A DNA stretch of 64,000 bases from Ruminococcus sp. (lineage in GTDB: Bacteria > Bacillota > Clostridia > Oscillospirales > Acutalibacteraceae), in contig JAFUOM010000084.1 in the NCBI GenBank assembly GCA_017481885.1, positions 7,959 to 71,958 on the forward strand. The letters run 5' to 3'. The notes beneath the pieces are model-generated. The model did not search any database. It was given only the letters and a program-made list of their open reading frames with translations, and was not told the origin of the DNA. Shown one piece after another: positions 17,132 through 54,041 of this stretch (position 1 is the stretch's first letter; each line of letters begins with the position of its first letter). Made by a program: the position numbers and the translations under genes.

Positions 17132-17146
17132 CGTGATTCAAACCCC

Positions 17147-17309
17147 AAAATAGCACTCCACCAAATGGTGACAGTGTAATACATATTCTGTATTACCCCA
17201 GCTCAAAAAGCTTCGGAACACTTTTTGAACTTCGGCGGTGAGTCCTTTTATACACAAACAAAACTCCGCGCACAATGTGTACTACTCTTAAACACCGCAC
17301 CTCTATTTT
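17147..17309 (-). ncRNA. Lysine riboswitch (L-box)
   Basis: Minus strand AATAGAGGTGCG...AGTA...AAAGG...CGCCGAA...CTGGG...ACTGTC...GGAGTGCTATT; P1 closes; upstream of an NhaC/LysW transporter. Confidence 0.93.
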
Positions 17310-17437
17310 TGCATACTATAGATTATATCAAAATTCGTCGATTCGTCAACCTTTTCGACAAAATTGTTACTATGTAATGAAAAATTTTATATAAAAAAGA
17401 AAAAGCTCCCCGAACTGAGGAGCTAAAAGAATGATTT

Positions 17438-46298: not shown

Positions 46299-46346
46299 AA
46301 AAAAAGCGTTGCATATCAGGTTTTACCCCTTATGCAACGCTTGTTT
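46299..46346. repeat. AAGCGTTGC hairpin repeat, copy A (also terminator-like)
   Basis: aaaaaagcgttgcata...tatgcaacgcttgttt. Confidence 0.8.
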
Positions 46347-46360
46347 ATATATGCTAAATA

Positions 46361-48527: not shown

Positions 48528-49181
48528 TTATTCTTTCCAAACAAAGTTGTAGTTTATGGATTCGCCACCATCTACCAAAATACTCTGTCCGGTGCAAAAT
48601 TTGTTTGTAACTGTAAGAAAATACGCCCACTGTGCAATTTCTTCTGCGGTTGCCCATCTTTTTAACGGAGTTTCGTTCATAATCTGAGCCCACAGCTTTT
48701 CATCATTGATTACGCAATCATTAAGAGGTGTTATAACCCCGCCGGGGTCAAGACTGTTGCAAGTAGCATTAAAAGGTGCAACACGCAAAGCAACGTTTTT
48801 GGTGTAAGCCAAAATTCCCGCTTTGCTTGCACAGTATTCAGGGAATTCCGCACCAGTATGTGCACTTGCTGAGCCGATGTTCAAAATCGAGTGAATATCC
48901 TCTTGAACACCATATTTTTCAGTGATGTGTATGAGTGCCTTTAGATTAATGTCGATATCCTGCTCGTTCTGTGTGCCAGCGTTGTTAATCAGTATGTTAA
49001 CACCCGTAAGTTCAGGCAGTTTGTCGTAATCCCTTATGTCGCATTTGTAGTGGGTGTAGTTGTCGTCAGCAATGCTAGCGTTCTGTCTGTCAATACCGAT
49101 TACTGTGTGGTTTTCTTCTAAAAACAGCTTTGCAATAGCTTTGCCGATACCCTGTGAAGTTCCTGTTACTAAAACTTTCAT
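48528..49181 (-). CDS. Classical SDR oxidoreductase in the preQ1-regulated operon
   Basis: TGTSQGIG, Asp after beta2 (NAD-type), NNAG, Ser and YCASK, VDGG; 4-nt overlap with VUT gene. Confidence 0.9.
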   Translation of the reverse strand: MKVLVTGTSQGIGKAIAKLFLEENHTVIGIDRQNASIADDNYTHYKCDIRDYDKLPELTGVNILINNAGTQNEQDIDINLKALIHITEKYGVQEDIHSILNIGSASAHTGAEFPEYCASKAGILAYTKNVALRVAPFNATCNSLDPGGVITPLNDCVINDEKLWAQIMNETPLKRWATAEEIAQWAYFLTVTNKFCTGQSILVDGGESINYNFVWKE

Positions 49182-49927
49182 ACCTTACCTCCGTTAATAA
49201 ACTCGAGATATTGCTCTCCAACCCTTTGTTTTTTCCATTTCTGTATGATTGAATATCCGATTGGAGAAAAGATAATTTCCATAATAAGTTCTGCAACCGC
49301 ACCGGTCAGCGCACACATTGAGCACTGCAAAAACGACCAGCAAAAACCGTCCCAGTATATCGGTGCAAACAGCATAAAGACAATCACCGAGAAAATCAGA
49401 TTGTCCAGAAACTGGCCTATAAAGGTTGAGATGTAGCACTGTGTAATATATGCCAGCTTGCCGTCAGGATTGCTGACAAACGCTTTGCCTATAAGCCAGT
49501 TCAAAAAGTTGTTAATCAAAGCTGATATCAAAAAGGCGATTGTACTGCCAAGCAAAATAAACCACGTTCCACCTAAAATAGAGTTAAGTGCAGTGTAATC
49601 ATTTGCGTTTGATGGAATTATGCTCGCAATATAAAAAATCATACAGGTCAGCAGGTTTATACCGCAAGCAAGCAGTGCAACCTTGTTCGATGCCTTCGGA
49701 CCAAAATACTTCGTAATAATGTCCATACACATAAAAGACAGCCAGGATATTAAAATTCCGCCGTCAAGTGCGATAATCTCGGTTTGCACAAGAGTTTTGT
49801 TTGCAAGCAGGTTCATACAAATGACGCTCACAACAAACAGCGATACAACCGTTGAGGGGATACTTCGAAATAAGAGCGTAGTTTCATCGTGTTCTCTCTT
49901 AATCAAACTTTTAAAATCTGTTTTCAT
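49178..49927 (-). CDS. VUT/YhhQ (COG1738) queuosine precursor transporter
   Basis: NLLANK, DII...FG, STIAF, ST..GQFLDN..F motifs; preQ1 riboswitch upstream; start MKTDFK with AGGTG RBS. Confidence 0.85.
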   Translation of the reverse strand: MKTDFKSLIKREHDETTLLFRSIPSTVVSLFVVSVICMNLLANKTLVQTEIIALDGGILISWLSFMCMDIITKYFGPKASNKVALLACGINLLTCMIFYIASIIPSNANDYTALNSILGGTWFILLGSTIAFLISALINNFLNWLIGKAFVSNPDGKLAYITQCYISTFIGQFLDNLIFSVIVFMLFAPIYWDGFCWSFLQCSMCALTGAVAELIMEIIFSPIGYSIIQKWKKQRVGEQYLEFINGGKV

Positions 49928-49955
49928 TTTATCACCTGAAAAGAAAGTGTTATAC

Positions 49956-49991
49956 AAAAAATAAAGTGGCTGAGCAAAACGCAAAGCCACT
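49956..49991 (-). terminator. Riboswitch expression-platform terminator
   Basis: Minus strand agtggct-ttgcgttttgctc-agccact-ttatttttt. Confidence 0.7.
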
Positions 49992-50018
49992 AATCATTAC
50001 AATATTTATGAATAGCAG

Positions 50019-50061
50019 TCCTGGTTTTGTTTAATGACAGGATGGTACAAGCGAACTGTCA
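50019..50061 (-). ncRNA. preQ1 class I riboswitch
   Basis: UGACAG-UUCGCUUGUACCAUC-CUGUCA-UUAAACAAAAC-CAGG: P1 stem, UUCG/CCAUC loop, A-rich tail, CUUG/CAGG pseudoknot; starts just after an extended -10 (TGATATAAT, 50070-50078). Confidence 0.85.
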
Positions 50062-50189
50062 GCAAAGTAATTATATCAAATTATCGCAAAAAAACAAGTG
50101 GTTTGTACATCTGATATTGCTATGATTTTATTTGATGTGATATAATTATCCCGACAAAATGAATTTGACGATGCAAAGGAGGAAATATT

Positions 50190-50585: not shown

Positions 50586-50589
50586 ATTC

Positions 50590-50652
50590 AAAAAAGCGTT
50601 GCGGATGAGGGTAACGTAAGTGTATATCCTCAAACTGCAACGCTTGTTTTTT
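50590..50652. repeat. AAGCGTTGC hairpin repeat, copy B
   Basis: aaaaaagcgttgcgg...caaactgcaacgcttgtttttt. Confidence 0.85.
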
Positions 50653-50656
50653 ATAT

Positions 50657-52755: not shown

Positions 52756-52907
52756 AATTCATCATCCCCATTCTACGTATATAAAATAATTATATCACAC
52801 TATAATGAGCTTCGCAATAAACTGCAGTTTAACGATAACCCCATAGTTTAACGATAGGGTTATTGATTTCACCGGCAAAAACTTAAAACTACATATTTTT
52901 ACACAAC

Positions 52908-52970
52908 AAAAAAGCGTTGCACATCAGGGGAGATACAAAAATACTCCTTCAAACTGCAACGCTTGTTTTT
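52908..52970. repeat. AAGCGTTGC hairpin repeat, copy C
   Basis: aaaaaagcgttgcaca...caaactgcaacgcttgttttt. Confidence 0.85.
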
Positions 52971-52979
52971 ATTATCTGC

Positions 52980-53795: not shown

Positions 53796-53897
53796 ACTGT
53801 TCTCCATAGTATTGATGTGTCTATTGTAGCCTTAATGACACCAAAGTGTCAATGTTTTTTGCCCCAAAGCTCAAAAGCCGATATGAAATTTTACAGC

Positions 53898-53959
53898 AAA
53901 AAAGCGTTGCAAATGTGGGGACGATACTTTTATCTCCATCAAACTGCAACGCTTGTTTT
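53898..53959. repeat. AAGCGTTGC hairpin repeat, copy D
   Basis: aaaaaagcgttgcaaa...caaactgcaacgcttgtttt. Confidence 0.85.
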
Positions 53960-54041
53960 CGTTGGTATTATTCAACATAGCTATATTGTTGCCTTTGTTA
54001 TGTAATGCTGATATAAAAAAATGCATGTAAACTCGGATTGT

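Follow-up and report, generated by a model that had tools for sequence, protein, structure and literature searches.

Why would gut bacteria couple a transporter for queuosine (Q) precursors to an enzyme of the short-chain dehydrogenase/reductase (SDR) family? The question is raised by an operon on the minus strand of a 64,000-nucleotide (nt) stretch of Ruminococcus sp. DNA (order Oscillospirales; GenBank assembly GCA_017481885.1, contig JAFUOM010000084.1, positions 7,959 to 71,958), hereafter the window. A first reading of the letters alone (the sequence-only reading) described there a promoter, an aptamer for preQ1 (7-aminomethyl-7-deazaguanine), a terminator, a VUT-family transporter gene, and an SDR gene overlapping it by ATGA, and all five lie where it placed them (Table 1). 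It further supposed that the SDR acts on an imported Q metabolite. The associations described below make it very probable that the SDR belongs to 7-deazaguanine salvage, its function being assigned by the company it keeps. As to its chemistry, we favor the conversion of queuine to preQ1, with a probability of about 0.45. More tentative still is the full proposal of a new class of Q-salvage enzyme, an NAD-dependent queuine dehydrogenase with its own QPTR-type importer, under a riboswitch that would be a fourth preQ1-I subtype.

Queuine, which carries a cyclopentenediol on the nitrogen of preQ1, is a micronutrient that animals obtain from their microbiota. It is the common and abundant free Q base in guts, where bacteria compete for Q precursors. 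To our knowledge, the only known route from queuine to preQ1 runs through QueL, an oxygen-sensitive radical S-adenosylmethionine (SAM) enzyme. If the proposal is true, a simple NAD-dependent enzyme adds a missing step to the maps of Q salvage, and the Q supply is explained in organisms that have tgt, queA, and queH without queT, queC, or queF. Gut Clostridia would then feed tRNA modification, and phages the 7-deazaguanine hypermodification of their DNA, through a queuine dehydrogenase of the SDR family. The operon would also offer a tractable pair of enzyme and reporter for measuring queuine.

A conserved transporter-SDR pair

The transporter gene probably starts at ATG 49927, 5 nt after an AGGTGA motif; GTG 49990 was rejected as a start, as it would overlap the terminator. 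The TGA of the transporter gene overlaps the ATG of the SDR gene (ATGA), an arrangement from which the SDR is predicted to be translationally coupled to the transporter. The SDR has the motifs TGTSQGIG (residues 6-13), NNAG (66-69), S104, Y116-x3-K120, and D31, and with this Asp31 placed where strand beta-2 ends, the cofactor is probably NAD(H). The catalytic Ser, Tyr, Lys, and Asn are kept in nearly all members of the family, and no cysteine is invariant in the family alignments, closer or diverged. A Pfam search of the protein returned only SDR families, with no match to the Radical_SAM domain or to the T-fold domain of QueF (PF14489). No NCBIfam model was passed by the SDR, the best matches being generic and FabG-like. 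Its predicted fold matches SDR structures (TM-score 0.7), and the matches found in the PDB by sequence and by fold are all generic SDRs: PA4098, FabG, 17beta-HSD14, and AldT. The best solved relative, PA4098 (4avy), is itself without an assigned function. FolM and PTR1, the pterin-reducing SDRs to which the sequence-only reading had likened the protein, are not among the NCBIfam and PDB matches listed, no direct comparison having been made.

Table 1. Positions of the operon elements in the window and of the GT-A-fold proteins encoded beside phage SDRs
Feature	Position	Strand	Evidence
Promoter, sigma-70-type, extended -10	50070..50097	-	TTGTTT, 16 nt, TG-A-TATAAT; consensus match only
preQ1-I type I-like aptamer, 3-nt-insertion variant (predicted)	50015..50065, core 50061-50020	-	Match to covariance model R1
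Intrinsic terminator (expression platform)	49956..49991	-	RNAfold hairpin of -13.4 kcal/mol, then a U run
VUT/QPTR-family (YhhQ-like) transporter, 249 aa	49178..49927	-	PF02592, 97.4 bits (cut-off 27.2)
Classical SDR, 217 aa	48528..49181	-	adh_short_C2 (PF13561) 93.1 bits and adh_short (PF00106) 77.3 bits (cut-offs 27 and 26.6)
GT-A-fold protein (phage)	L122:4060-4899, L123:913-1752, L126:8656-9495, L127:8687-9586, L130:8708-9550		Predicted structure

Is this pairing peculiar to the window? A pattern scan of 185,579 species genomes returned at least 599 matching stretches, 554 of them encoding an SDR relative. Among the best 80 SDR relatives, 76-87% identical to the window SDR and the basis of every count out of 80, VUT is the directly upstream gene, in the same orientation, in 79, the codons in most cases overlapping or nearly touching, and the same 51-nt aptamer is found in 30. 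The sequence-only reading had proposed a check of SDR homologues for co-occurrence with transporter and riboswitch; the transporter accompanies nearly all of them, the riboswitch fewer than half. The pair is kept in more diverged loci as well, where the SDR is 48-57% identical, and clustering of all the neighboring open reading frames (ORFs) revealed no third conserved neighbor. VUT and SDR are a fixed, translationally coupled pair. Most of their hosts are Clostridia of gut and rumen (Oscillospiraceae, Acutalibacteraceae, Lachnospiraceae, and Christensenellales), with Gallibacter intestinalis DSM 108706 as a cultured example. Many of the genomes are incomplete metagenome-assembled genomes (MAGs), and a few bins of other phyla may be mis-binned.

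Two observations concern unusual loci. The only one of the 80 without an adjoining VUT by tblastn is L099, in a Candidatus Cryptobacteroides MAG, with an SDR that is 77% identical. For a few other loci the bins carry the label Kiritimatiellae or Spirochaetales, which points to either mis-binning or horizontal transfer.

A predicted preQ1-I variant in the leader

The promoter is made up of TG (50078-50077), TATAAT (50075-50070), and a -35-like TTGTTT (50097-50092), all on the minus strand; the promoter scan also gave an overlapping neighboring candidate, TGTACA/GATAAT, at 50109-50080. The aptamer follows. R1, a covariance model trained on 11 preQ1-I aptamers from the order, with the window locus left out and a 6-bp P1 helix imposed, matches 51 nt of the leader with 42.6 bits (E = 4.7e-10 in 82 kb), which argues for a real aptamer rather than a chance match. 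The span first proposed, 50061-50019, coincides with the core to within one nucleotide, the R1 match being wider. P1 pairs UGACAG with CUGUCA and P2 pairs CUUG with CAGG. A UU lies 3' of P1, a UC just before the 3' strand of P1, and the tail reads AUUAAACAAAAC.

The Rfam PreQ1 model (RF00522), by which the sequence-only reading had thought the aptamer could be confirmed, did not do so: in the window leader it gave no match at its gathering score (39 bits) or at E <= 10 (301 nt), nor in a search of the whole genome, and the variant is thus missed by this model. Across 151 genomes of the order, RF00522 yields 11 matches, all of them sub-threshold (24-35 bits). Eight of these 11 canonical aptamers are directly upstream of QueT genes, and compensatory changes are seen in five of the six P1 pairs. 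Because the Rfam model under-detects type I aptamers in the order, Q regulons there are under-annotated. The 11 sub-threshold aptamers come from genomes G063, G167, G051, G139, G127, G080, G111, G066, G047, G135, and G170 (L021-L031).

The 51-nt variant recurs upstream of VUT-SDR in 31 other genomes. In the 32 sequences P1 is 100% and P2 99% paired, against 27-50% in slid controls. P1 shows one compensatory change, from C-G to U-A, and P2 alternates between C-G and U-G and between G-C and G-U. The ligand-contacting bases (the UU, the UC with its specificity C, and the A and then C of the tail) are invariant in the alignment; these positions of type I aptamers, which bind two stacked preQ1 molecules, have been named previously (PMC8752633, PMC11625349). 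Like the type I riboswitch of Carnobacterium antarcticum (PMC8752633; RF00522), the variant is an H-type pseudoknot with the UU, the UC, and an A-rich tail that ends with A-C. It departs from that riboswitch by three extra loop nucleotides (UUCG-YUUGU-ACCAUC as against UUCG-(A/U)A-ACCAUC, the window copy having CUUGU) and by its tail, which is ACCAGG where the canonical one is ACUAGG. Together, the extra nucleotides and the ACCAGG tail make possible a regular 4-bp P2 (YUUG/CAGG), which probably replaces the C8-A12-U32 ceiling triple.

Further downstream, the arms AGUGGCU and AGCCACU form a GC-rich stem of 7 bp that includes an inner GC pair, followed by UUUAUUUUUU. A simple terminator scan found no site in the leader, probably on account of its loop limit of 3-8 nt. 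In all 32 leaders a strong hairpin and a U run, with stem sequences that differ, are found 30-90 nt downstream of the aptamer, so that transcription termination is the most likely mode of action of the switch. An anti-terminator pairing could not be made out in the leader, the sole alternative helix being UCCUG/CAGGA, which would compete with P1 and P2. From these features, the window leader is a predicted transcription-terminating variant of the preQ1-I type I riboswitch, expected to bind preQ1.

VUT-SDR in place of QueT

The window genome (88% complete) encodes a tRNA-guanine transglycosylase (TGT; 531.8 bits) whose GGLAVGE motif we take to be the preQ1-type pocket of bacterial enzymes, as a lead rather than a test. 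QueA adjoins TGT, QueH is present, and a single Vut_1 gene is found; true QueC, QueF, and QueT were not found in this genome. Among 50 genomes bearing the VUT-SDR module, TGT is present in 43, but it is nearly universal and thus weakly informative. None of these 50 has QueC above the cut-off, and QueF-domain matches occur in only two, at a marginal 28 bits. These absences do not discriminate, because the order is almost entirely without both genes whether it has the module or not (QueC in 3 of the 151 genomes), and for the same reason an anti-correlation of the SDR with queC and queF is uninformative.

The distribution of QueT carries more weight. In the 151 genomes, which sample a large gut and rumen order, the SDR is present in 21 (~14%), QueT in 111, neither in 19, and both in none (Fisher 5e-15, not corrected for phylogeny); elsewhere there are several hundred further stretches matching the SDR. 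The split recurs within nine families, and in two of them (f8 and f16) the seven genomes divide 3 + 4 and 4 + 3. QueT was not found in the 50 module-bearing genomes, which come from the wider scan, either. The repeated displacement of QueT, a preQ1 importer, argues that the VUT-SDR pair delivers the same product. By gene content, the pair is a predicted stand-in for QueT across the order. One SDR-positive genome of the window's family also retains a QueT remnant of 81 aa in which TAG and TAA stops occur (G061:C23:93970-94221), which looks like the trace of a QueT replaced by VUT-SDR.

Diverged SDRs in phage 7-deazaguanine clusters

The SDR family is narrow: a search of 1.84 billion representatives gave 102 with E <= 1e-30. 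Those members of the family that are 35-60% identical come mostly from viral contigs, as judged from IMG/VR labels and from phage genes in several of them, and in the tree a tight bacterial clade (support 98/95) is nested in viral-dominated diversity. Among the curated phage genomes of INPHARED, no close SDR homologue was found. Of the 25 closer viral contigs, 18 have VUT adjoining the SDR and two more have it no more than 1 kb away; some phages show the opposite order, SDR-VUT. Longer SDR proteins from the representative search were considered as informative fusions and turned out to be double SDRs or mis-called starts.

Phage modification of DNA with 7-deazaguanines involves DpdA, FolE-QueD-QueE-QueC, QueF, DpdL, and DpdM/DpdN (PMC6884629, PMC10516641), and the diverged SDRs lie inside clusters of this kind, in two architectures. 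In one, a DpdA-type transglycosylase (phrog_887) is clustered with SDR and VUT. Thus contig L115 has the order ParB-DpdA-SDR-VUT-DUF5020, followed by terminase and portal, and DpdA-SDR-VUT clusters are also found in L122, L123, L126, L127, L128/L129, L130, L144, and L166. In the other architecture, seen in nine viral contigs of four sequence groups, the order is VUT-SDR-QueF-QueC-QueD-QueE-FolE, the SDR and QueF (113 bits) being one or two genes apart. Because SDR and QueF occur together there, they are not substitutes for each other in phage clusters. YhhQ homologues had been noted earlier in some phages, "with no correlation" (PMC6884629, PMC10516641), but these two papers mention no SDR, no VUT-SDR pair, and no GT-A neighbor. 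The occurrence in phages suggests that environmental 7-deazaguanines are scavenged by viruses to modify DNA.

In five contigs (Table 1) the gene that directly follows the SDR encodes this GT-A neighbor, a conserved phage protein of ~280 aa for which neither Pfam nor PHROG gave a match. Its predicted fold is that of a GT-A glycosyltransferase, with Foldseek E-values of about 1e-7 to ppGalNAcT2 and TarP, and a WxDxN motif is invariant; from this model, the protein may decorate a 7-deazaguanine base in phage DNA.

Some further phage genes lie close to the SDR. The DUF5020 protein right after VUT in L115 (L115:3861-4472) may be another uptake component. The QueD of L146 (L146:10477-11400) has its PTPS domain at residues 177-286, preceded in the same frame by an N-terminal HTH_50 domain and an HNH endonuclease. 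Between SDR and QueF, L145 and L146 both have an unannotated ORF of 172 aa (L146:8685-9200) with no Pfam match.

A possible route from queuine to preQ1

These associations place the SDR with the cargo of the transporter, not with de novo synthesis. Because QueT alone suffices for the import of preQ1, the SDR partner that is always kept implies that the cargo of VUT needs conversion. VUT would thus import a 7-deazaguanine other than preQ1, and the SDR would convert it to preQ1 in one NAD-dependent step. TGT and some phage DpdA enzymes would use the product as their substrate, and once accumulated this product would shut the operon off via the riboswitch. In the reaction that we favor, the cargo would be queuine, and the SDR would oxidize a hydroxyl of its cyclopentenediol with NAD+. 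In the oxidized form the C-N bond would be labile, by beta-elimination (E1cB) or by imine hydrolysis, and preQ1 would be freed. In this role the SDR would parallel the queuine lyase QueL without its radical chemistry. NAD+-dependent oxidation of hydroxyls is ordinary SDR chemistry, and the intact Ser-Tyr-Lys triad would fit the oxidation of a secondary alcohol.

The idea that the SDR acts on an imported Q metabolite has thus gained from the pairing, the recurrence of the riboswitch, the exclusion of QueT, and the phage clusters. Of the two chemistries put forward by the sequence-only reading, the oxidation of queuine with release of preQ1 is still the best fit as a conjecture, and the reduction of a precursor has been weakened in its QueF-like form.

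Several points weigh against the queuine route. Queuine as the cargo rests on chemical plausibility and ecology, not on a computed result. The window VUT reaches 36.7 bits with TIGR00697, the NCBIfam equivalog for the queuosine precursor transporter, which is under the cut-off of 50.95. In 49 of the 79 modules there is no riboswitch, only a short leader with its own promoter. The genomes counted in the comparison of SDR and QueT are not phylogenetically independent. In phages, the GT-A-fold protein is in the cluster in seven viral contigs (five aligned, and L124 and L125 by tblastn), and as modeled it hints at a hydroxyl-bearing product, not plain preQ1. Finally, all the DpdA enzymes tested so far insert preQ0 (7-cyano-7-deazaguanine), not preQ1 (PMC10516641), so that a preQ1-producing SDR fits the DpdA phages less neatly.

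What else, then, could the SDR do? It may serve 7-deazaguanine salvage with another substrate or at another step, for example by reducing an aldehyde or imine 7-substituent, by acting on another N-substituted preQ1, or by making a hydroxyl-bearing base for DpdA and then a phage glycosyltransferase; we regard this as possible, though rather unlikely. We know of no abundant natural substrate of that kind, which counts against it, as does the fact that the bacterial end product must be preQ1, given QueA, QueH, a preQ1-type TGT, and a preQ1-type riboswitch. The association evidence (pairing, QueT exclusion, and phage clusters) fits such a reaction too, and the GT-A-fold protein beside the SDR and the use of preQ0 by the DpdA enzymes tested so far (PMC10516641) speak for it. 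Alternatively, VUT might import preQ1 itself, leaving the SDR as an accessory off the path to preQ1, where it would handle a by-product, stabilize the transporter, or trap the cargo. All that follows from the riboswitch and from the displacement of QueT is a supply of preQ1 by the module, and members of the E. coli YhhQ family carry preQ0 and preQ1 (PMC5372724, PMC11625349). Such a role is nonetheless improbable: the coupled SDR persists in 79 of 80 loci and at sequence divergences of 35-87%, phages of different gene order keep it as well, nearly all members retain the catalytic residues, and QueT manages without a partner of this kind.

A non-orthologous replacement of QueF, turning imported preQ0 into preQ1, would agree with the import of preQ0 by YhhQ-family transporters (PMC5372724) and with the lack of a true QueF in the window genome and in the 50 module-bearing genomes. 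That lack, however, is the rule in the order regardless of the module, a bona fide QueF (113 bits) is near the SDR in nine viral contigs, and the SDR family has no invariant cysteine and an Asp31 of the NAD type. The mechanism of QueF needs a covalent cysteine thioimide, and we know of no SDR nitrile reductase; this replacement is therefore quite improbable. Very improbable, in turn, is an SDR unrelated to queuosine, reducing some other vitamin-like compound that the VUT clade imports. Its appeal lies in the VUT score under the curated YhhQ cut-off, in the generic FabG-like matches of the SDR, and in the majority of modules without a riboswitch. It does not account for a preQ1-type aptamer upstream in 32 genomes, for the perfect exclusion with QueT, or for phage SDRs lying between VUT and QueF-QueC-QueD-QueE-FolE or beside DpdA.

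Relation to known Q-salvage systems

The known Q-salvage proteins are QPTR/YhhQ, QueT/QrtT, QueK, Qng1, and the radical-SAM QueL (PMC11130926, PMC5372724). QueL is a radical-SAM queuine lyase of Clostridioides difficile, found with QueK and with QueT of an energy-coupling factor (ECF) transporter (cited in PMC11130926). The queuine dehydrogenase proposed here would have the same net function, the supply of preQ1 from salvaged queuine to a normal bacterial TGT, and likewise in a gut Firmicute unable to make preQ1. It belongs to an unrelated family with different chemistry, being an NAD-type SDR of predicted activity with no radical-SAM domain, and its partner is VUT, not an ECF S-component. The QueT/QrtT ECF S-components (PF06177), predicted preQ1 importers, fill the same role of providing preQ1 for TGT and are under the same riboswitch class in the order. 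However, each is a single membrane protein without an enzyme partner, never found with the SDR in the 151 genomes.

The YhhQ/QPTR proteins (COG1738, PF02592) transport preQ0, preQ1, or queuine (PMC5372724, PMC11570991). The window VUT is of the same Pfam family, members of which are known under preQ1 riboswitches, but it stays under the equivalog cut-off and its clade is followed by the SDR. QueF (PF14489), the NADPH-dependent preQ0 reductase, resembles the proposed SDR in depending on nicotinamide and in yielding preQ1, and differs in its T-fold and its cysteine-thioimide catalysis. The literature, of which subscription papers were poorly covered, yielded no SDR with an assigned role in Q salvage or in phage deazaguanine clusters. 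What is proposed would therefore extend a known kind of system by an enzyme component and a riboswitch subtype, both of them new.

Other features of the window

Downstream of the SDR come a PRK07208-type flavin oxidoreductase and then GtrA, neither of them conserved beside the pair elsewhere, and the stretch from the SDR stop to the next gene showed no intrinsic terminator. Two other structured RNAs were found in the window: a full-length lysine riboswitch (RF00168) at 17143-17313 on the minus strand, with 118.6 bits, and a Gut-1 RNA (RF01706) at 167-246 on the plus strand, whose 52.9 bits are just over the cut-off and which fits a gut-metagenome origin. A hairpin repeat is present in four co-oriented copies (46300-46350, 50589-50656, 52907-52975, and 53897-53965), with conserved arms (AAAAAAGCGTTGCA ... 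TGCAACGCTTGTTTT) and a variable center. Each copy resembles a terminator and comes immediately after the 3' end of a minus-strand gene. Since the operon sits between two of these copies, transcription from the riboswitch promoter may reach the one at 46350-46300.

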